Source: Lingula anatina (taxonomy: Eukaryota > Animalia > Brachiopoda). Taken from it: a stretch of 64,000 nt of DNA. Of this stretch, positions 3,298-18,200 are shown in pieces; position 1 is the first letter of the stretch, and the number at the start of each line of letters is the position of its first letter. The stretch spans positions 12,524,001-12,588,000 of the forward strand of contig CM120645.1 in the NCBI GenBank assembly GCA_051362555.1. The letters are read 5' to 3'. The position numbers and the translations under genes were made by a program. The notes under the pieces were generated by a model that saw nothing but the letters and a program-made list of their open reading frames with translations, made no database searches and had not been told where the DNA came from.

Positions 3298-6200
3298 CCT
3301 TGACAGAGGCAGTGTGTGGGACCTCCACATGAGAGTGTTGGGTCTTGAACTTTGTGGGTGGTTGCACCTGTATGTCCCAGGGGCCTGGGGCAGGGCCGTT
3401 ATGTGGGCCGTCAATTGGCTGTCCTGTTATAATGAAAAATTAGGCAATTACTATGAATGATAGCAATTACAATTAGCAAAAATGAATTTAACTGAATTTT
3501 AAATAATCTTCTAGTGCATAGGTTTTTTATAATGTCTCTTAATTGTACATTGACGATGACTATAGAAGTACATTTGTCAAAATTGCTAAATACGACATCC
3601 TGCACAAATGTACAAAGTGAGATAAAAAATGGAAATATCCCTTTTAAAATTTTGAATTTTCATACACCTTCAGTTGTTACTGTTAAACTGAATATACAAA
3701 CCTATGTAAGGCTCATATGCCCAAGATGTCTGTCGTTTCTCGGTGAAGGTCTCCAATGTGTACTGGAAAATTCAAACATGATAATTAGAGTAAAAAGTAA
3801 ATCAGTCATTCTTTGCTAGTGGTGCACTGCAGGGGGGCCATAACAAGAATGTTATTTAAATTTAGATAGCCAACCAAATTCTCATGACATCGTTGTGTAT
3901 GTTTCAATAACAAATCAAAGAAGCTGCATGAGCAAGGAGGATGTTGTTATAAAAGCAAAAAAATAGAAAAAGCAGAAAATATATCGAAATAACCCTCAAA
4001 ATGGCGTCCTTTTTTGTGGAATTTTGACCCTACCTCTATTTAAGAACAGTTTGTTTAGGGTTTGAATGGATTATTGAAGCAGGAAATACATCTACTGCAA
4101 GAAGATATAATAAACAGAATGTGCAAATTGTTATTTAAATAACAATTTATTTGAAGTCACTGAAAAATGATCACAAAATTAGCTTAACTTACGATACATG
4201 CGGTGTCCCACCCCGATGAAAATTTCATCTAATCCTATCTTTCCGTATTAAAACTGTTCAATCGTCCAAAGTAGTATGTCGGTTAGTTTGTGTCACGAAG
4301 TCCATGATAATATCAGTTTTCTTAAGAATTTCACATTTATTGCTCAGCAAGGTCGATTTTTCTTCACCGCGTCCCAATATAACGTTCGCAACGCTGAAAC
4401 TTGAGAGATCGATTTTTATCAGACGACTTTAAAATGCCGCGTGAAAATTATACATCGATAGCGATCTTCTTCCATACTCACTAACTGATGACGTCTTACA
4501 CACGAATGGCTTCTTTTGCACACTAAAAAAAACAGCTCAAACTGGCGGGTGGCCCATTCTGATAACATATCACGCAATGACGCTGTCGAGATAGGATGCA
4601 GGGCACAGGTGTAATTCCCTCGATTTAACCGTCACAGGATTGTTTATTGGGATCTTCTTTGTATGAAGGTGAGAAATAATGAGTTTCGTTTCATTTTTCT
4701 TCAATTGTTTCAACATATTTGTGTACCGATTGATTTTTACCATTCTATAAGTAGGGTGACTTCGTCTGAACTTTCGTTTTGCATCTGTTTCACATGGGGG
4801 ACTAAAGGTCATATTGAACATGGTGACGCGGTGATACCGTATTCATGTTCTCTTGTTCTCGAAAACTCAATCATCGAAATTGAATTACTTTTTTTAGTTT
4901 TGTCTTAAATTAAGCTGCTACACTGTATTCCGTGCGTTTAAAATTTAACCGTCTGTAAAAACAGCAATAATGGATTACTAGCAACACTTACGTTACGCAA
5001 TGAAGCACCGAAAATGGGTGAAGAAAATGTGTCTCAGTAATGCGTGTTTGCCACTCATAATGCACTGTACTTTGTTTGAATAAGCAATAAACTATTTGTG
5101 ATCTTAGGTTATCCATTTAAAGTATTCACTGTGTCTACTTACTGAATTGGTGAGTGATCGCTGTCTATTGTTATGCTCTTTGATAGAATTGTAGATGGAT
5201 CGTCAATCTAGACACGTCCGGTACGGAGTGCAGAATATTAGACAATGATCTGTGACAGTTGTGATGTCACAATAGTGACGATCTCCTGCAGGGGGCGTGC
5301 TGTCCCCACCTGGCCTAGCTCACTCACCTGAGGTGGCCTATCTTGGCACATGAAGAGCAGACCAGGTGGAGGAAGGAAAAAACTCCGATCACAACATTCC
5401 CCCCACTTTTATTAAAAAGAGCCGAAAAAAGGTAAAGTTTTTTCCCAGTAATAGCAATACATGTTTAAACATGTAAAAATATTTTTCAATAACAATGGCT
5501 TCCAGCCTCGATCAGACTGACGTTAATGCTAACGACATCACCTAAGTGATAGTCTGACGAGAAAAAATATAGGATTAAACTGTGACAACTGTTGATTCAG
5601 CAGTTAGTCACATCACTGATACAGTGATAGTCTATCCACAAAAATAAATACTGGAAAGCCGAAAAATGAAATCAAAAATTTGGGGACATTCCTAGGATTT
5701 GGCGGAAGATCAGAATACTAAATAAATAATAAAATGGAAATAAATAAACACTTGTGCTGGTGCACTGTACCTAGTACAGAGTAATAAACTGTGCTGCGGT
5801 GCTGTATTGCGTCCTGCAATATAGTGCTTCTGAAATACACATATTTGTGTACATAACTTGACAAGTGATATATATATATATAAGTGCTACAGGTGCCATT
5901 GTGCTCTTGTGCATCTTTGTATCTGTAAATGATATATAAATAAATAATGAATGATAATCAAATAAAGAAATGAATAAGGTGAAAATGGGCCCACTGATGG
6001 TAACTTTCATAGCTCCGATGATCTCCCGGATCAGGAAGAGGAGAGGGGCTTCAGTGAAATTTGAATTTAGTAAGTACTAAGAAGAAATAGTTTTCATAAT
6101 TTTCTAGAAATTTTTTAATTGTCCAAAAAAGAAGTAATTTTGTCATATTTTCAATTTTTGTTTTCCAAATTCCTGGTTACTCCCTTTTATACAAGGAAGT

Positions 6201-9200
6201 ACCATTTTGTGTAGTAATTTTTAAAATATGAGAGACATCCACCCCTCTGTGCCCCGCCAATATCTCTGCCGTTTCATAGAGAATAAAGGGTGTTGAATGG
6301 CCCCCCTTTTTGCGAGCGAAATAGGGGGCATCTGACTCCAAAAGAAGTTTGGAGTCAGGCACCGCCCTAAGTGCTGCTAGTTGATTTTTGTTAAAGGTGG
6401 CAGCAACCCGGGTGAAACCGAAAAAGGTATTTGGTTGCTGCCTTCCCCAAATTTCCAGAAGGGGCTTTGTGCCTGTAAAGCAGTGAAAATGGATCCTCTG
6501 GGACTGCGGAACGCCACACAGTTTCAGATGAAACAAAAGAGATCTTATGGCGAACTCACAGTCTCCAGAGTCTCCCCTCACTCCCCTACAGTGCACAACC
6601 AGGACATGCCTGGCCTCTAGAAAAGGCAGAAGTCTGTGGAGCAACTCAACCTGATCCTGCCATTTAGACATGGCTTCAGTGTGGTCGAAACCTACCTCGC
6701 CAAAAGCTGTTACTAGCGGCATCTTAACCAACTCTGAGAAAGCCTTAATTGCCTGGTCCAGATTGCCCTGAGAAAGCTTGCCGGCTAGCCTCGGGTGAAA
6801 ACCAATAGCTACATACTCGATCCCAGACAGAGTGGAAAGATACCCCTTAGTAGGATATGTCTTGGGATCGCAGTAAATAGCTACAGTTCCCACCAACTCT
6901 ACCTCTTTCCCAGAGCAAACAGGAAGCAAACCCTTAAGACCCTCTAACTTGCCAGAGTATGGAAGACCAAAGGCAGCCAGGGTTCTATCTAGATGATAGT
7001 GACTATCGAAAGCTTGCCTCCCTGACTTACTTTGTTCCCCCGCCTCCAGACAAGTTTCTGGCCTGGTGAACCCTTGAATCCACAACGACCTCTGCTGCTC
7101 CGTTATAGAAGCAGACAGCTGTGTCAGGACTCTCCAATCCACCAGGACCCCGACAGAGTTAGCTGGGTATAAGGTGAAACGCACTGGGACCGGTTTATTG
7201 AGAAATTTACAGAAATTTTCCATGGCAGTAATTTGGATTGAAGAAAAAGTGCCATGGGCTAAATTTAATTTATCTGGAAGAGCCGAAATGAACTGGTATA
7301 AAGTGTCTAGTTCTTTTTTAAAACCAAAAATGAAGAAAGTAAGCATCTCCAGTGCTTTAACCATTACACCCAAGATGTTGGGCTCAGGATTGGCGCGCTC
7401 ATCAAAGATAGACGGGACATGCAGCCCCAGCGAATGCTGCCTGAGCATCTGCTCATTAAGTTTCACCCCACACCCAGGGACCACACATTGCATCTCAGAG
7501 TGATCTTTCCTGGCCCTTTTGGGGTCAGGTCCAACCACTCCGGATGGTGTCTGGCTAGACCTTTTCGGTTCCCTGGTTGTAGGATGAGACAGCTCCACTG
7601 ACTCAACATGCCCATCCACCCCAGACTTTGCAGCAACCAACCCCTTGCCAGGTTTCTTGCCACGCCTCCACCAAGGAGCTCTCTTCTTCCCCTTACGCTT
7701 ACTGCCCCCCATGGGCTCAGATGGTACAGGCCCAGGAACAGGAACTTGGATCCCTGTTGGAGCAGCAGCTTCAGGGAGGTGTGAACCTGAAGAAGAGGAG
7801 ATAGAAAAGTTGAAAGGGATGGCGGTATTTTGCAGCAGTGATGCGCCTGGCATAGGAGTTTCCGGAGCAGCTGGAGGTTTCACGCTGGATTTGGCCTCCC
7901 TTGGGACTCCAAGAAGTCTGTCCTCCTCAATGGAGTCCAGACTGGAGTTGGGGTCGATGTTACTTGACCCCACACCAAGTTCAGCCTCATCCAATTGCGA
8001 TTCCACCTCCATAGGCTGGACCGTGCCACTCCCATCGACCACCTGGGTTATGAGTGTAATGTTTGGGTCCTTCCCAAGCCTGAAATCACGAGTTTTTTGT
8101 CCATCGTACTCCACGGAGGGAGCAGATTTCAAAACTCGTGCAGGAGGGGTGAAATTTTTTGGGAAGGCGCCAAACATTCTTCTCAATCCAGTTTTTAGAC
8201 GCAAGCCCACTAGATTGTAGTTGGTAGGCCACTTGCTGCAACCATGCCAGAGACATGGCATACCTACCGGGAGCACGAAGCTCCTTTTTATAAATGGTAG
8301 CCATCCCAGCCACCAGTGTTTTGAAGTAGCTGCTGTGATCTTCCCCAGGCAGAGCCTGGGCCAAATCCTGGACAAACTGGGTTCCAGGGACATCTATAGG
8401 TGAACAATGCTGTAATCTGAGTGAAGTCTCCTTCACAACAGGTGCTACTTCCGTGATAGTATTGGCCATATCTGTAATAACAATGAAAAATAATTATTAG
8501 ATTTGACATTTTACACACTTGTATTTATCAATGTTTATCGCTTCGGTAGAAGTGACATTGACGCAGGATCCATGATACCATTCATGACAGTAATCACATT
8601 GAATCATGAATCTGCCCTGATAAGGCTCCCTGCAAATACAGTATGGTGTCAAATCTTCTTCCTCACTGTTACTCGAGTGCTGAAATTGTTCATCAGAAGT
8701 TAAATATTCTGTAATCCATGAGGGTACATTTCTGTCCCTACAGGGCATGAGCCTGTCATGGTTAATTACAAAGATTGCATTTTTTAGCTTCACTCGATAC
8801 AGATAGCCAGATAATTTCTTTACAATGATGGCGGGTCCTTTCCATGGTGAACACAATTTTCGTGATTTGCCTTTAGTTGTTGCTGTATCCAAAACATAAA
8901 CCAAATCCTTTTCAGCATAAGGTCCAAGCAGGATTTTAAGGTCATAGTCACGTTTCATGCGTTTTGAAGTTGTTTTTAAATTGGCTCTTGCTGTAATATG
9001 AGCTAATTTCATTTTTTGTACTAACTTTGAAATGTATTCACCATAGTCAGTTTCTTTTGATTTCAGATTTGGGAACATAATTTGGGCTGGAGTACTGACC
9101 TCCCTCCCAAGCATGAGCATATTAGGGGTATACCCCGTACTTCTGTTTACAGAAGCACGCAACGCGCCTGCAATTTGCTGGACATATTTATCCCATTCAC

Positions 9201-12200
9201 CCTGATTTTTACCCAAAAAACACCGTACGGCATCCATCAGGGTACGATTGAACCTTTCAACCTGTCCATTTGCAGACGGTCGGTACGGAGTAGTGCGTGA
9301 TTTGTGTATATGTAAAGCCCTACACAAATCCCCGAACAATTGACTTTCAAAATTCCGTCCCTGATCAGAAAAAAGTTGATAGGGATAACCGAACCTAGAA
9401 AAGAAACAGTCAATTGCTGCTTTCGCGGTCACTTCGGCCGTTTGAGAAGGCAACGGTACGCACTCTACCCACTTTGTGAATTGATCAACCATGACCAAAC
9501 AATGCTCATTACCTTTTGCTGTTTTAGGTAGCGGTCCCAAGAAATCAATATGAACCCGTTCCATCGGAGCACCTGCAACATATTCAGTCAGGGGGACTCT
9601 TCCGTAACACCCTTTTTTCTTATTTTTATTACAGATGTCACAACTCATGACATAATTGGCTATTTCTTTGCTCATATGGGGCCAGTAAAATTTTTCTTTG
9701 ATTTTTGTTTTTGTTCTAGCCACTCCTTGGTGACCAGCTGAAGGGATATCATGATGTAACTTGAAAACAGAATTTTTTAATGATTCTGGGATGACTAATT
9801 TTAGATCTTTGCTTTCCTCTTCAGTTTTGAAAATGACTCCATGATGTAATTTGAATAATTCTTTATTCAGCCAGTAAGTTTTGGAGATTGGGCTTGATCG
9901 GAAGAGTACACCCTGTTCTGGGGTATTCCCATTGTATAACCACTCTCGTAAAATGTTAAGCTCAGGGTCTTTTGCTTGTTCAGTTTTTAATTTTTCCATA
10001 GAAAAACCCCAACACTGAGGAATATCCGGGTTTGGATTTGACCTCGCCTCCGGACCACACGCATTTATTTCTACATGAGATTCCTCAGGTTGCAGAGCGA
10101 CATCGGTAGAGAGGGCTACAATTTTTTCTAGAAGACTATAGAAAAGATGTTCCGGACCCGTTTCTCGTCCCAGATTGACTGTATTTAATGAGGATGTCAG
10201 ATCGCGTTGACTTTTTGTAGATTTACCAGTAAATTTGGATGACAATTTTTTCTTTTCTGTTAAATTGACCGCTTCATCGACGTCACCGAAAAAACTCCCC
10301 CAGTTTTCATGGGCTCTGACGCAATAACTACATCCTCCGCAAGGTAAATTTTCCGGCTTTATTCCCGCAATATACTCGTTACACGGTGCCAAATTGTCGG
10401 GTATTCGAGACAACGAATCAGCATTGCTATGCTTAGCTCCGGCACGATGTTGTACGATCATATTGAATTGCGAAAGCTCTTCTATCCACCTCGCGAGTTG
10501 ACCTTGAGGCTCCTTAAACCTCAGTAACCATGTCAGACTTGAATGATCGGTGCGAACGGTAAATATTCGGCCCAAAAGATAATACCTGAATTGTCTGGTA
10601 AATCTCACGATAGCCAAAAGCTCTTTTCGCGTGGTGCAATAATTCTTTTGTTCGGGAGTTAACGCGTAGCTGCCGTACGCAATTACTTTCTCCTCGCCGT
10701 TTTGCACTTGTATTAACTCTGCACCAATCGAGTGATTTGAAGCGTCGGTATCTAAAATAAACGGATCGTTTGCGTTTGGTAACGATAAGACTGGTGGTGT
10801 AGTCAATGCCGTTTTGAGCGCTTCGAAAGATTGAGCTTGATCTGGTCCCCATTCAAAGGCATGTTTACCTTTAATTTTGTTCAGAGGGTGGGATATTTCC
10901 GCAAAATTTTTTATAAAAGTTCGGTGATAATTTGCCAATCCTAAGAACCTTTCAACGTCCTTAGAACAAGTGGGTTGTGGCCAAGAAGTTACAACTTCAA
11001 TATCCTTAGGGCTCATTTTCATGGTGTTATTAGAAACAATCCGCCCCAGGAATTCAACTTCTTTTTGAAACAAAACGCACTTTTTTGGCTTTAATTTGAT
11101 ACCGAACTGGCGAAATCTTCCCAAAGCCTCTTTCAAATTTTCTAAATGATTTTCAAAGGACTTCCCCATTACCAAAATGTCGTCCAAAAATGCCAAAACT
11201 GTTTTCCATGTCAACCCCTTCATAAGTAAATTGACTACTCGGGAGAAAGTCGCAGGAGCATTGGTCAAGCCGAAACCCATACGGACATGTTCGAATAATC
11301 CGTATTTCGTGATAAAAGCTGTTTTATGCCTATCTTCGGGTTTAATTTTGACTTGCCAATACGCAGAATTGGCATCTAACTTCGAAAACCAGATGTTTCC
11401 CGACAGAGTATCTTTGCAATCTTCCATTAATGGTAATGGATACGTGTCTTTGACCGTGACATTGTTCAAGGCGCGATAATCGATGCACCATCGGACGGAA
11501 CCGTCACGTTTTCTAATTAAAACTGGTGCTGATGCCCACTCTGACGTAGACTCTTGGATGACCCCGGCTTTTAACATTTTTGTTAATAATGCCTCCTCTT
11601 CTTGAATAAAACACGCGGGAGTTCGCCGCATACGCGTTTTAAGAGGTTTGGCATTCCCGGTATCGATACCATGCTCGATGGCACTAAACCGACCAAGGTC
11701 ATACTCGTCTCTAGCAAAAACATCCTGAAATTCAGATAGAACATTCTTTAATTTTTTACTCTGAATTTTGTTTAAATTCCTCGTTGATGTTTCATAAACC
11801 ACATTAACATGGTCAGGAATTTCTGATGATTTGCTAGCGACGCGTCCAGAAGAATCTTGTCCGGCGTGAACGTCACCAGCGATTTGTTTAAAATTCCGCA
11901 CCTGAGGTGACCCCTTTACAGGTGACTTGAAAATTTCGGTGTTAATTTTTTCTTCAACGAACCCCTTTCCGGCAGATGGGGCACTTAAAGGGCCCTGAGT
12001 ACTTCCACCCACCTTCAGAAGTTGTTTACTTTTTATGTCATTTTTAAATCGGGCACTTGTTTTAGGGATGTTCTCAAAATTAGGGGAATTAACACCAGAA
12101 ACCCCAGTAGAATTTAATCCCACAAGCTTTGTCTTATTTGGGTACACACCTGTTCTAGGGATTTTACTAGTTCTAGGAGTGTAAATTGAATGCTCCACTG

Positions 12201-15200
12201 GTAAATTGAATCCCACAAGTGTGTTTGTAGAATCCCTACCGGTTCTAGGGACGGCTGATTTTACACGAGTAATTTCAGGTAATCCCACCAGTAGATCGGT
12301 AGTCATTGTCTCATCAGTGGTACTGACAACACGAGCGCTGGATTGGTCAATTTTAGTAGACCCCCCTCCCACTCGATGTAAACCGAAGTGCGAAACAGGG
12401 TTTTCTAAAATTTCCGAAACTTCGCAAGCCGTAGCGACCACATGACCCCTTTTTAATTTTTTAAATTGATCTGATGGATTTAAGAGGCACACGACTGGTT
12501 TTGATTTTTCGGACAAGACAGTTCTCGGTATTAGTAGTCCCTCTTCTTCTTTACCCTCGACGACGTATTTTTCTAACTTTTCGTCGATCTCGCACGTTAT
12601 CCTTAGTGCTGAATTTGGGGGTACTACTACATTTCGTGAAACGCTAACCCGAGCTATTTTAATGTCTTGTGCACGCGACTCCGTTTGCTGCATAGGTATG
12701 TCGCGCCCTTCTATTTGGATGTAACCCAAATTACAATGCACGCTCGCATTAAACTGGGCAATTAGATCGTGGCCTAACAAAAAATCGTCATGTATCGGCG
12801 CTACTAGAACAGATTCCTTGATTTTGAAACGATCTAGTTCGATGGAAATTGGCTCGCAAACACGAGTTTCGATTTGTGTATTCCCTGCCGCAAGAGTAAG
12901 ACTGTAATATTTCTTGAGCGACGGTTTATTTTTTATTTGCTCGAATATTTTTTCAGCCATGACAGAAACTTGCGCACCGGTGTCAACTTTGGCCATTACA
13001 TGTACACCCGCCACTACCAAAGGAACGAATGAAGATCGAAAAACCCCAAGTTCATCAATTACAGGATTTTGACCACATTCTAACTCGGAATGATGAGGAC
13101 GATGCAATGTTTCCATTACGGGGATAGTATTGTCAACGGTTCGTGTTTGAGACAATGAAGTCACGATGGTTTCACCCGTTTTGTGACCGGTTTCAGTCGG
13201 GTTTCCAAGGTTACGGTCATTTCCCTTGGACCCTTCTAGTTTAAATGAGTTGGATTCGTTATATCAGCCCGTGCTTGTTGTTTTTCAGCATTTTTTCTTT
13301 GTAAGAATTTTTTATATTTTAGGCAATTTCGTTTAAAATGGCCCTTTCCTTTACAGAAAAAACACACAGGTGTTGTTTTAGGTGTGAATTTCCGGACCAA
13401 GCGTTCAACCATAGATTCCAACTCTGCCATTGAATTAAACTGAATTGTATTCAATTTAGGTGACTGGCTAACGCGTTTTTCCACGATGAATTCAACAAGT
13501 TGTTCTACATTTTCAGTTGGAAATTGCCGATTTTCATCAGCTGTTAAATTTAGAGAACTAATTTGTAATTCATCACGATTTTTTCGTGTTGGTTTTTGAA
13601 TATGTGATGATTTGTAGACTTGCTGATAATCCACCATGTAGGTCATTGCCTCGCTGATGCTTGCTGGGTGTTTTAAACGAGTATAACGCCCGGCATCCTG
13701 ATCAATACAGCCCTGACAAAATTTGGATATTGTTTCTTTTGTTCTAAAGGATTCTGATTCATCAGGATAAGCGTCTTTGGCCAATAACAAAACACGGCAC
13801 AGCCATTTATTCAAGGTTTCGTTGGGAGATTGAACTGCTGTATGAAATGCCAAACGAGCTGAATCGGGATGTTTTTTAATTCCGAATACTGAATCCATTT
13901 CACTCATTAAGGCTGAATACGTCATGTTTTTATTTGCTCTGAGATTGGTGTTATACAAAGCCAAAGCCTCGCCTTCCAGACTCCATAAAAGGTAATCTAG
14001 ACACTCATTTTCCGACCACTCTTTCACTTGGCGATAACTGTCAAATCTGTTTTTAAAAGACTCCCAGTTTTCACAATTTCCGTCAAAAGACAATTTTTTG
14101 GGTAAATCACTGGGGTCCCCTCTGTCCTTTTTATTTTTAGGACGTACTGTTTTTGGTACTCTAAAATATTCATTTTCACTTTCATCGCTTTCGGGAAGAA
14201 GTGGTTCGTCGCGGAAAACGGGAGACGAAATTCTATGGCGTGTATGATGTTTCTCTATTGAACTCGGCCGGTAATCATGTTTACGTTCGACTGTATCAGC
14301 AACATTATGCTCAACGTTAAGTTGCCGCCGTCCGGGCGTAGGAACATGAATCTGTGGCAGATCATAATTCGAAACAACCCGATGGACAGACGGAGCTGGT
14401 CGCCGACTACTTTCCCTACCAGTCGGTAAAGAAGTAACAGTCTCGGAATTTATGACACGGCCTGGAGGCTTTACATGCGCGGAAGAAGTTGTATGATCTT
14501 TGTTATCGACACGCAGCCTCTCAATAGGCAGAGCAAAAAGATCGTATTCAGGGTCTAAAGTGGCTGGCTGTGAAGTGAAAGTTCTGGGGTCCAAAGCTGA
14601 GTGAGAACGTAATTTTGTTTTTGGTTTGATAAATTGCTGCTCAGTTGTTGATTTTGAACGAGCTTTTAATTTTAAATATGTTGGTGGAGAATAAGTTGCA
14701 GCTTTTTGAATGTTTTTACTGCGTGCAATTTTTTCTTGTTGATTAATTTCCTCACCCACTTTGAGAATTCTTTCAAATTCTGCCCTATAGCTTTCAGCAG
14801 CCGCTCTTCCTTCATTATGAATGTAGGAAGTCACTTTAGAAGTTTTCATTTTGGGTTTTTGACTTTTTTCGGTGGATAATATACTAGAATCGAGGTCACC
14901 CACGTCGACTTCAGATTCGAATTCACTTCTGTGAGTACTGCCAAAAGAGAGATTTTCAATTACATTTGATCCAAGATTGGATCCACAAATCTCCAAAATG
15001 TTGGATCTGGTCACGGGGATCCCATGTTCTCTAGCATATATTATCCTTTCTGCACGTTTAGGACCTATACCTGGCAGCGTAACGAGCTCATCGTAAGTAG
15101 CACGATTGACTGGCAACCTTGATGCACTCGCCATTGTACATTTGAAAGCAAAAAATAAATTGATTCAAAATAATTTCACTTATCAAAGCACAATACACTA

Positions 15201-18200
15201 CCAAGCTTATAGTGAAATTCGCTATAAATAGATTCCCAAAACGTACAATGAGTTCAAATTTGGAAAACAAAGACTTTGGTACACAACGCAATAAATTGAA
15301 ATCAGACAGAAATTCTGTTCAGAATTCCGCCTAAAATACAAAAGAATAAATAACAACAACACAGAAGTCAGTATTTTATTCTTTAAATAAACTAAATAAA
15401 CAAAGAAACCAAAGTATTACGTGTGCACCTTAGTCTTGGAAAATTTCGGTAGAGATCGTAACAATGCACAGGATAATGAGACCAACGTCTCCTTTATATC
15501 ACCGACCTTTTCACGTAAGTACTGAAAAATAACGTAGATGTGCAGGAAAATCAGTGTCTCCTGATGCGGTGACCTTTACGATCCAAAATTGAAACAACAA
15601 TTTTGACCGCCGCTCCACCCAATTATTCAAATGGATGTTAGACAAAGGAATTTCCCGCGCAAACTACTTTCAGCTAGATCGCAGCGAAAACTAAGCTTTA
15701 GGCCCGCAAATATACAAGTTACGAATGCCTTGTCGCCAATAAAGTATTCACTGTGTCTACTTACTGAATTGGTGAGTGATCGCTGTCTATTGTTATGCTC
15801 TTTGATAGAATTGTAGATGGATCGTCAATCTAGACACGTCCGGTACGGAGTGCAGAATATTAGACAATGATCTGTGACAGTTGTGATGTCACAATAGTGA
15901 CGATCTCCTGCAGGGGGCGTGCTGTCCCCACCTGGCCTAGCTCACTCACCTGAGGTGGCCTATCTTGGCACATGAAGAGCAGACCAGGTGGAGGAAGGAA
16001 AAAACTCCGATCACAACACATTGTTCGTTATCAGAGTTAACAGATTCTTTGTGTGAATTTTTTTCAGAATCCCAAGAGTGGATGCCTTAGTGAGCACAGA
16101 ACAGATATCACCATTGGTCTACATATGTCAGGAAGAATGTTATAATTATGAACTTTGTGTTACACTGAACTTCATTTTGTTAAATTTTGTATTTAACTGA
16201 ACTTTTTTGTGTTAAAATAATAATAAAAAAATAATAGTTCTGATAAAAAACTACAATCTGGAACATTCTTTAGATCAACTTTGTTCAGTGTGTGTCCCAT
16301 ATGACAGAGTTACAGTAAATAAAATATGTGCATTATTCCTCTGTGTTTGTCAATTCCATTTTAAAAGCATGTGAAAGTGGTGTGCCCCTCATGAATGAAG
16401 TGTGTATGGATAATAGCAAAAATATTGTTATTATTTACATGATTATAAAAAGTTTTTGTACCCGCGTCAATAACGTTACCGTGACCCACATATTCACCAT
16501 TTTTATTAATTATGAAATGTGGATTAAATTCTTCAAAACCAGTTTTGAAGCATTGAGACAACACCCCCTTATGATTTAAACTAAAACTGAAAACATTCCA
16601 TTAGACTTTCATTAGTTTGTGCAAAATATATTACCCAGGGTAACGCGTCTTGGATTTGGTGGGTATAGCTGTTCAACTGTCCTGTGTGCCCTAAAAAGGG
16701 CAGCTGCTGTTTCCCTTTTTATGAAATGATAAACTGTGATGGTGTAGCTATCACATCGCAAAATTACAGCTTCCCAGAGAAAGTTTGAAATTTTCGGTCA
16801 AATTCAACATTTTGTAACCACTAGCAAAGAATGACAGAAATAGACTTGGTAGTCTAAATGTTGTGTGGTGTTGGCGTAAGACACGAAAGCTGAAAGTTTG
16901 AGCTTGTGCTTAGCATTTTTTTAAATTTGTTATACGCTATTTCTTGATGAAAATGTTGTTTGATAAAAAATGATAATCAACACCATGTGTTCAGGATGGA
17001 GTTACCTATTAGACTGACATATACTACTGTGAGTGGTACTAGTACTACTCACAGAACAATAATACAACAGATGAGAGTATTAGTAAATGGAGGAGGTTAG
17101 AGGAGATTATTCCACCATCATTTTTAGGTTCTAACATATTTCAATGAGATTTTTCCCCAGCATGAATTCTTAAAACAACATCAACATGACAAAGAGCTCA
17201 CGTGGAATGCACTGCTAGACTGTAGGTCTCTAAACACCATCTCCTTAGCAGTGCCGCTACCGTAGCAACAGTGCTCGGCCACATACTGCAACATGGCTTC
17301 ACGGGCCTGTTCCTCTGTTATCACAGGTACGCTGAAGTAAGAAAGAAAATACTGTACATACTGTGTTTGCTATCGGGGGTAGTGCTGGCAATTTTTTTTT
17401 TTTTTTTTGCTAACCCAAGTAACTACTATTTTGTCATTTTTTTTCCTCCAAATGGTCAATCCCATTTTTTAGCTGATTGAAGTTATCTTTAGCATTTGGC
17501 TAAATTGGCAAGTACCAGGTTCTGGTAATATGCAGTATCAATCTTTGAAGATTTTTTTCTATATTACGCATAGAAAAATAATATAAATTGTTGTGGTCCT
17601 GCCCAGACAAAGAGATAATACACTAAAAATAAATAATTAAATATATTTTTTTTTACAAATGACAGTAAATGCCTATATTCATTAACTGTATCACAAATGA
17701 CTACAAATACATGGATAAATAAAATTCCAAACGAAGCAGTTCTTAATTTTTATTTTTCTTAGAAATAATGATTGATGAAGAATTAATTTCACAGGAATTG
17801 CCCTCCACTTACTTCTGTATATCTCTCCTCTCAGGGGGTGGACCCTGTGCCACAGCATCTGCATATGCTGGCGGGGGAGCAGCAGCTGAGGAAAATCATC
17901 AAGACAAACTATATGGACAGCGTATACCAGTGCGAGTAGGCAGAAATAAACTCCAAAGCAGCACCATTTATGTTATTTGTCACTTAAAATAAAACAAGCT
18001 TATCATTTACTGAACTATAATGTTTCTTGCAAAAATTCCTTATAATATTATTAAAAATTGGCAATTATGAACATGTCGCAATCATAGCAGCCTCAAATGT
18101 AACATATCTTTCAGTTATTTAATATTTTATACCAAATGCCATGACAGGTACTGGTATGAGAGAAAAGTTTTTCAAGTACCTCCAGATTTTTAAAATCATT

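Follow-up and report, generated by a model that had tools for sequence, protein, structure and literature searches.

A Ty3/Gypsy retrotransposon of Lingula anatina with helix-hairpin-helix, PHD and TatD modules belongs to an invertebrate clade marked by an integrase-borne PHD finger

The stretch of DNA analyzed here, a window of 64,000 nucleotides from the brachiopod Lingula anatina (GenBank assembly GCA_051362555.1, contig CM120645.1, positions 12,524,001 to 12,588,000), harbors a young Ty3/Gypsy long terminal repeat (LTR) retrotransposon of 10.9 kb, which occupies positions 5118 to 16018 of the minus strand with exact boundaries. The original prediction for this locus, namely that a single element combines a helix-hairpin-helix (HhH) motif in Gag, an integrase-borne PHD finger and a TatD nuclease, was borne out by the LTRs, the target duplication and the Pfam domains. 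The features of the element, which encodes Gag, Pol and a third open reading frame (ORF3), are given below in the direction of transcription (RT, reverse transcriptase; H3K4me3, histone H3 trimethylated at lysine 4).

16019..16022, unstranded: target-site duplication, 5' copy, 4 bp (flank comparison; RNA reads joining 5113 to 16019 omit the element and one 4-bp copy)
15740..16018, minus: 5' LTR, 279 nt, with TG...TA termini (direct-repeat comparison)
15732..15738, minus: primer-binding-site-like TGGCGAC, 1 nt after the 5' LTR (also found ahead of gag in L001, L002 and L193)
13236..15134, minus: gag ORF, open, ATG at 15134
15003..15110, minus: HhH motif, N-terminal in Gag, ComEA/EEPD1-like (Pfam)
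13788..14051, minus: PNMA-like capsid region of Gag (Pfam)
13323..13364, minus: CCHC zinc knuckle of Gag (below the Pfam cut-off)
13239..13245, minus: TTTAAAC slippery heptamer in the gag/pol overlap, just ahead of the gag stop
8497..13263, minus: pol, an open frame of 1588 codons that encodes protease, RT, RNase H, integrase and PHD
8506..8640, minus: C-terminal PHD finger of Pol, with all four PHF2 H3K4me3-cage positions (Y, Y, M, W) (Pfam and PDB matches)
8472..8493, minus: pyrimidine tract and AG just ahead of the ORF3 start codon, a predicted splice acceptor
8086..8469, minus: N-terminal piece of ORF3, conserved but matching no Pfam family; in the window copy its frame differs from that of the remaining ORF3
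8155..8163, minus: position of the frameshift that breaks ORF3 in the window copy
6177..8393, minus: main frame of ORF3, which encodes a low-complexity linker containing basic clusters, a zinc finger, a helical domain and TatD
7050..7487, minus: C2H2-type zinc finger (C-x4-C-x11-H-x4-H) and helical domain (confident model, no fold match)
6180..7016, minus: TatD domain, probably of the TATDN2 type, in which the metal residues (HxH, E, H, H and E-x-D) are intact
5397..5413, minus: polypurine tract, preceding the 3' LTR
5118..5396, minus: 3' LTR, 279 nt, 100% identical to the 5' LTR (direct-repeat comparison)
5114..5117, unstranded: target-site duplication, 3' copy, 4 bp

Assignment to Ty3/Gypsy is supported by the two LTRs, the target duplication, the primer-site-like motif and the polypurine tract. 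The termini are TG...TA, not TG...CA; the departure from the usual CA is shared by L001, in which TA likewise precedes the primer site, while the terminal repeat of L002 ends in CA. The nearest named relatives are from Lingula, at 72% for Pol and 48% for ORF3.

The N-terminal motif of Gag is matched by two HhH families, both above the Pfam cut-off (PF00633, E = 2.3e-7; PF12836, E = 6.4e-7), and its best PDB sequence matches are ComEA proteins (E = 5.7e-6), with a further resemblance to EEPD1; HhH motifs of this type bind DNA independently of sequence. The earlier description of gag and pol as uninterrupted holds in that each is open, but the two lie in different frames, pol being shifted by -1 and overlapping gag by 25 nt, and a frameshift affects ORF3 in the window copy. 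Since a -1 overlap also characterizes 12 of the 17 relatives listed, a -1 frameshift at the TTTAAAC heptamer would be expected to join gag to pol. Pol follows the order protease-RT-RNase H-integrase, with the catalytic motifs of RT, RNase H and integrase intact and a GPY/F-type motif present. A fourth captured enzyme, a Tpt1/KptA RNA 2'-phosphotransferase (PF01885, E = 4e-43), is located between integrase and PHD in another Pol of the PHD-bearing group, P0197.

The element is not a chromovirus, as Pfam detects in Pol a PHD finger (PF00628, E = 3.8e-8, at the C terminus) and no chromodomain. The best PDB matches of this finger are PHF2, PHF8, KDM7A, CFP1, BPTF and DIDO (E = 4e-15 to 1e-12). The cage residues of PHF2 are Y7, Y14, M20 and W29 (PMC9898751). 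Across the 103 pattern-matched Pol PHDs, the cage M and W are invariant and the first position is Y or F in 100. Within element pairs, the PHD finger is more conserved than TatD or HhH, and 105 of the 120 closest Pol proteins, retrieved with a query that included the PHD, end in such a finger. Because its nearest solved relatives are of the PHF2/PHF8/CFP1 type and the cage positions are kept, the finger likely binds an H3K4-methylated mark.

The third frame requires a more careful reading. The out-of-frame segment at 8086-8469 matches the N terminus of a Lingula ORF3 homolog (E = 2e-11), and because homologs, which are mostly 750 to 900 amino acids long, begin with this region, ORF3 is broken by a frameshift in the window copy. 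The frameshift is missing from other copies, both in DNA contigs of run X1 at full depth and in nine of nine reads of RNA run X17, and is thus either private to the window copy or an assembly error. In RNA run X17, 725 reads cover all 30 bins of the element, mostly in one orientation (library strandedness is not on record). Given copies without the break in both runs and RNA reads along the whole element, the element family is multicopy and transcribed. A pyrimidine tract and AG acceptor lie just ahead of the start of ORF3 in 14 of 17 relatives, compared with 16 of 357 internal control Met codons, and ORF3, which takes the place of env, would likely be expressed through splicing of a subgenomic RNA. 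One gene model from the named gastropod Nucella lapillus, P0248, runs from Pol-PHD into what appears by eye to be the ORF3 N terminus, joining both.

The ORF3 family comprises 158 clusters at 50% identity (E <= 1e-30), and an element-specific mid-domain was found in 86 of the 88 listed family members of at least 450 amino acids. The model of the zinc-finger/helical domain is confident (predicted local distance difference test [pLDDT] score of 93.5); it yielded no Foldseek match at E <= 0.001, a best VIA Z of 3.6 and no usable Atlas match, which does not in itself establish a new fold. Matches to PPR families were discarded as repeat-summed noise.

The TatD domain (PF01026, E = 4.8e-27) is modeled with a pLDDT of 93.6 as a TIM barrel of the HxH class and matches TatD structures (E = 3.5e-13). 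Its seven metal-site residues are kept in 97 to 104 of 105 aligned rows, the catalytic residues being near invariant across proteins which are only 25 to 50% identical, and alignment with TATDN2 orthologs equates its glutamates and aspartate with the residues probed by experiment in the human TATDN2 and E. coli TatD proteins (PMC10711561). The ratio of nonsynonymous to synonymous substitution rates (dN/dS) was 0.14, 0.16, 0.17 and 0.19 in four unsaturated pairs, seven further pairs being saturated at synonymous sites and one unscorable; TatD is under purifying selection. Distances of TatD and integrase correlate across 24 elements (rho 0.67, with none of 5000 permutations as high).

As regards its origin, an element profile scored a median of 195 bits against 120 TATDN2 proteins, 138 against E. 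coli YcfH, 68 against TATDN3 and 62 against TATDN1, the last two having been compared by profile score alone. Of 22 element proteins, 21 contain the motif [FY]C[DNE]P, as do 95 of 118 TATDN2 proteins and none of 75 bacterial proteins. In quick trees, the TatDs of all elements group in a single clade (41 rows, SH-like approximate likelihood ratio test [SH-aLRT] 99; 12 rows, 98 under a mixture model), and the host TATDN2 proteins of Lingula and bivalves form a separate group. Based on the profile scores, the shared CDP motif and the best trees, eukaryotic TATDN2 is the likely donor. Human TATDN2 degrades the RNA of R-loops, with little DNase and very weak AP (apurinic/apyrimidinic)-endonuclease activity (PMC10711561), and fish tatdn2 protects primordial germ cells (PMC12709183). 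Since the closest host family includes this R-loop RNase, the processing of DNA ends or lesions originally suggested for TatD appears less likely than was first assumed.

The co-occurrence of the three modules was assessed through two samplings. In the first, which started from TatD, the ORF3 alignment was used to fetch 80 metagenome loci and 80 genome loci. Among the first 82 of these, 46 qualified as element type by having the mid-domain or by having a PHD or integrase upstream, and of the 18 such loci with at least 2.6 kb of upstream sequence, 17 carried a PHD and one an integrase only. The TatD of the ORF3 family was therefore found to sit behind PHD-integrases, so that the predicted association of TatD-like paralogs with LTR elements stands; bacterial TatD loci (L085-L160) gave no retroelement match. 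In the second sampling, which started from the integrase, 100 contigs were fetched from bins G001, G182 and G064 as a best-first subset of the matches. Twelve of the final 20 contigs had been chosen for their TatD or PHD matches, and none of these 12 is in the tree.

The resulting RT/RNase H/integrase tree comprised 82 elements. Loci without RT had been excluded unless they belonged to the PHD group, as had L081, which duplicates L191. On this tree, the modules cluster rather than scatter, scattering being the outcome that the original prediction had named as its refutation. The PHD marks a single clade of 24 elements, including that of the window (SH-aLRT 99), and is explained by one change. 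TatD was detected in 23 of these 24, the contig of the remaining element ending 488 nt after pol, and HhH in 15 of the 16 scorable, L026 retaining a degenerate motif only. Among the 70 rows picked by integrase rather than by TatD, two of which (L250 and L251) had been retrieved by a query containing the PHD, PHD and TatD were both present in 11, both absent in 19 and discordant in one, which had TatD only (31 scorable); HhH and TatD were both present in nine and both absent in 14 (23 scorable); and HhH and PHD were both present in eight and both absent in 28, with HhH only in two (38 scorable). A Pfam HhH-family match (E <= 0.01) was obtained for seven of eight separate HhH-bearing Gags and none of three control Gags, the domain lists of two fused Gag-Pol proteins being the best five families each.

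Two elements located just outside the PHD clade are informative in this regard. L205 carries HhH and TatD but no PHD, while L201 carries HhH and has too little downstream DNA for TatD to be scored. The TatD tree, whose subgroups mirror those of the integrase tree, places the L205 group as sister to the TatDs of the PHD clade. Because a sister lineage possesses HhH and TatD but not the PHD, stepwise capture looks likely, and the simplest history on these phylogenies would be that HhH and TatD were acquired before the PHD, each once, followed by vertical descent.

Neighboring Gypsy lineages display other contents behind pol. TatD-less lineages (L209:247-1386, L211:5761-6513, L214, L219, L229 and L236) encode other non-env ORF3s which start with C2H2-type zinc fingers, and the env slot of the wider Gypsy group may share a zinc-finger scaffold. 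Further cargo from the same host bin includes a BTB domain (L244:7326-9089, E = 7e-13), and a weak SRI (Set2-Rpb1-interacting) match lies behind pol in L202:3-590. The window element is not of the env-bearing, errantivirus-like type, as its ORF3 is a TatD protein; baculovirus-F-type env genes were found behind pol only in the unrelated control elements L259 (6439-8865) and L265 (1342-3837).

The clade also bears on the annotation of stand-alone TatD genes, which had been proposed to represent retrotransposon cargo. No fewer than seven gene models from brachiopods and bivalves fall within the ORF3 family, and the element-specific mid-domain is carried by the Lingula models LOC106164908, LOC106158303 and LOC106170426, by the Mercenaria "YcfH-like hydrolase," Pecten LOC117320398, Argopecten XP_069103070 and Ostrea LOC130052597, and by the "Thiodiazotropha TatD hydrolase"; the true TATDN2 proteins of Lingula and bivalves are without it. 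The proposal thus holds in so far as several models are family members, from which membership we infer their status as cargo. Bacterial bins of an animal-symbiont family (G001, G182, G064 and G244) hold many animal retrotransposons, and G001, with 122 integrase and 44 PHD matches, evidently contains host repeats. Such bins give rise to annotations in which TatD, PHD and integrase sequences are wrongly taken as bacterial. Some brachiopod and bivalve TatD/YcfH-like models and symbiont-bin TatD or integrase genes are, therefore, probably retrotransposon genes, which can mimic nuclease-family expansions and gene transfers.

The surroundings of the element consist of a high-copy repeat (positions 3802-5117 and 16019-16838), DNA read depth being approximately 3000 in the flanks and 80 to 390 inside the element. 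An inverted repeat of 22 nt, with its arms at 3802-3823 and 16817-16838, may represent the ends of a small DNA transposon. The element boundaries are fixed by reads spanning an empty site (four in RNA run X12 and six in X15); insertion polymorphism was set aside as an interpretation of these reads because other copies of the flanking repeat would yield identical ones. An ornithine-decarboxylase-like gene is located on the minus strand at 28894-30253, in two long frames (PF02784, E = 3.5e-48).

Taken together, the interpretation we moderately favor is that the element, young and transcribed, belongs to an old invertebrate Gypsy clade whose three modules were likely gained stepwise and likely fit the element to active chromatin, each at its own step. 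The chromodomain of chromoviruses has a role in integration targeting, and by analogy the integrase-borne PHD suggests targeting as well: it would probably bind H3K4-methylated nucleosomes and bias integration toward promoters and active chromatin, as a mirror image of the chromovirus arrangement. The HhH of Gag could bind DNA without sequence preference and so hold cDNA or tether the particle to chromatin, a proposal about which we are evenly divided and in which the assigned job is a guess. ORF3, the basic clusters of which suggest a nuclear protein, may trim the RNA of R-loops or structured RNA in the manner of host TATDN2, by which the element's own transcribed copies or R-loop-rich targets would be kept clear and tolerated in germ cells; to this step we give slightly less than even credence. 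It is a more doubtful extrapolation that the clade as a whole represents a widespread euchromatin counterpart of chromoviruses, in which the PHD reads H3K4me3 and a TATDN2-type R-loop nuclease clears or tolerates the R-loops of targeted germ line promoters.

A number of observations weigh against this interpretation. The single insertion site seen lies inside a high-copy repeat with no evident promoter, approximately 13 kb from the sole gene identified in the window, and the second cage tyrosine is an aspartate in 50 of 103 relatives. No spliced ORF3 junction was observed in seven RNA runs, in which depths were mostly below 10. As regards TatD, the pair L191/L010 has a dN/dS of 0.44; the approximately unbiased test leaves a position between bacteria and eukaryotic TATDN2 unrejected (p = 0.22), as an alternative to nesting inside TATDN2; and the nearest rows of the TatD tree are unnamed metagenome proteins. 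ORF3 is without the N-terminal region of TATDN2, and no mid-domain match was found in TATDN2 proteins. Human TATDN2 requires its own N terminus for R-loop binding (PMC10711561), and because this region is not shared, the substrate of ORF3 may differ from that of TATDN2. L028, which falls outside the element-type filter, carries an element-clade TatD with 3.5 kb of upstream sequence in which no integrase or PHD was detected. Lastly, the co-occurrence of the modules is a single event and provides one independent contrast (one independent pair), from which functional coupling cannot be inferred.

This last point bears directly on the original proposal that the three modules form one system. In its version as an integration machine, the PHD would pick the nucleosome, HhH would hold the DNA and TatD would act as a 3' exonuclease or AP endonuclease, trimming cDNA ends or cleaning the integration gap. 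Such a machine would be in keeping with the absence of TatD loss among 23 scorable PHD-clade elements, with the 3' exonuclease and AP-endonuclease activities of other TatD paralogs (PMC10085689), with the nicking of catenated DNA by human TATDN2, more so without its N terminus (PMC10711561), and with the conserved C2H2-type finger in ORF3. We nevertheless consider it quite unlikely, since TatD is a separate ORF behind a predicted splice acceptor, unfused to Pol in all 120 closest Pol proteins, the L205 lineage has TatD without PHD, the closest host family acts mainly on RNA, and intact integrase, RT and RNase H motifs leave no core activity in need of replacement.

Alternatively, ORF3 may serve in counter-defense, degrading nascent or structured RNAs used by small-RNA silencing, or dead-end RNA and cDNA which alert the host, unrelated to target choice. 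Its location as a separate env-slot ORF behind the acceptor is compatible with such a role, and a similar idea has been discussed for the DEDDy ORF3s of bdelloid rotifers (PMC5408684). TatD also evolves several times faster than the integrase core in the same pairs (dN of 0.26 to 0.44 versus 0.04 to 0.14). Accessory proteins in conflict often evolve fast; no positive selection was detected in the pairs measured, however, all TatD dN/dS values being below 1, and we regard this alternative as unlikely. Far less probable, and largely refuted, is the view that the modules are passengers or host genes, with TatD as neutral cargo or as a host TATDN2 paralog adjoining retrotransposons by chance. ORF3 is indeed broken in the window copy, looks broken in several related contigs, and is labeled as host or symbiont in public databases; yet TatD lies, intronless, between pol and the polypurine tract or LTR in the window and many relatives, its tree mirrors that of the integrase, its catalytic residues are maintained despite the sequence divergence noted above, and the host TATDN2 proteins group apart.

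The choice of insertion sites by retroelements is a long-standing question, and an integrase with its own H3K4me3 reader would, if confirmed, be a natural example of reader-guided integration. H3K4me3-guided integration is also a sharp prediction, testable with existing mollusc genomes and chromatin immunoprecipitation data. The clade-wide retention of a TATDN2-like nuclease points, in turn, to R-loop or RNA handling as a possible need of retrotransposition beyond RT and RNase H.

In the literature searched, which did not extend to Repbase or subscription journals, no description was found of a Gypsy clade with PHD-integrase, HhH-Gag or TatD ORF3. The main texts of three mollusc and annelid LTR surveys contain no mention of PHD or TatD; among them, PMC6238403 names the Gypsy clades MolGy1-16, Mag A/B/C, CsRN1 and Cigr-1, and the supplements may hold the present clade under a MolGy name. 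The only match for HhH with gag and gypsy concerned a structural hairpin of Cer1 CERV, and scans of viral contigs with ORF3 and with integrase-PHD retrieved no relative. Captured ORF3 nucleases, reader-bearing integrases and a PHD on Ginger transposase are already known separately, while the clade-wide triple capture appears to be undescribed.

Among known systems, chromoviruses (e.g., PMC2864245), which are Ty3/Gypsy elements with a chromodomain at the integrase C terminus, resemble the window element in fusing a histone-reader domain to that position; the reader of the window element is instead a PHF2/PHF8/CFP1-type PHD, predicted to recognize the active mark H3K4me3. In Ginger1 DNA transposons (PMC2836005), a Gypsy-type integrase/transposase is followed by a PHD in one of 16 families tabulated, that of an invertebrate, but these are DNA transposons with terminal inverted repeats and no RT, in which the PHD occurs alongside a Ulp1 domain and does not extend across the clade. 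Juno and Vesta of bdelloid rotifers (PMC5408684) resemble the window element in possessing, in the env slot, a non-env third ORF which encodes a 3'-5' nuclease with intact catalytic residues. The fold is DEDDy in those elements and a TatD TIM barrel here, and their ORF3s were gained more than once and are shared with Penelope-like elements, whereas the present clade has one clade-wide module co-descending with pol. Host TATDN2 (PMC10711561, PMC12709183 and PMC10085689), like ORF3, is an HxH-class TatD behind a long low-complexity N terminus, with the CDP motif and catalytic E, E and D; the element TatD differs in being intronless, element-borne, approximately 25 to 30% identical and on a long branch, and ORF3 has its own zinc finger and helical domain, which host TATDN2 is missing. 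Finally, Copia elements with MBD (PMC6673714), DNMT-bearing elements (PMC5890265) and orchid Gypsy elements with an N6-methyladenosine demethylase (PMC9289625) are cases of a captured host domain fixed in a retrotransposon lineage; each carries one module, whereas the clade described here carries three, one per ORF and none of them among those domains.

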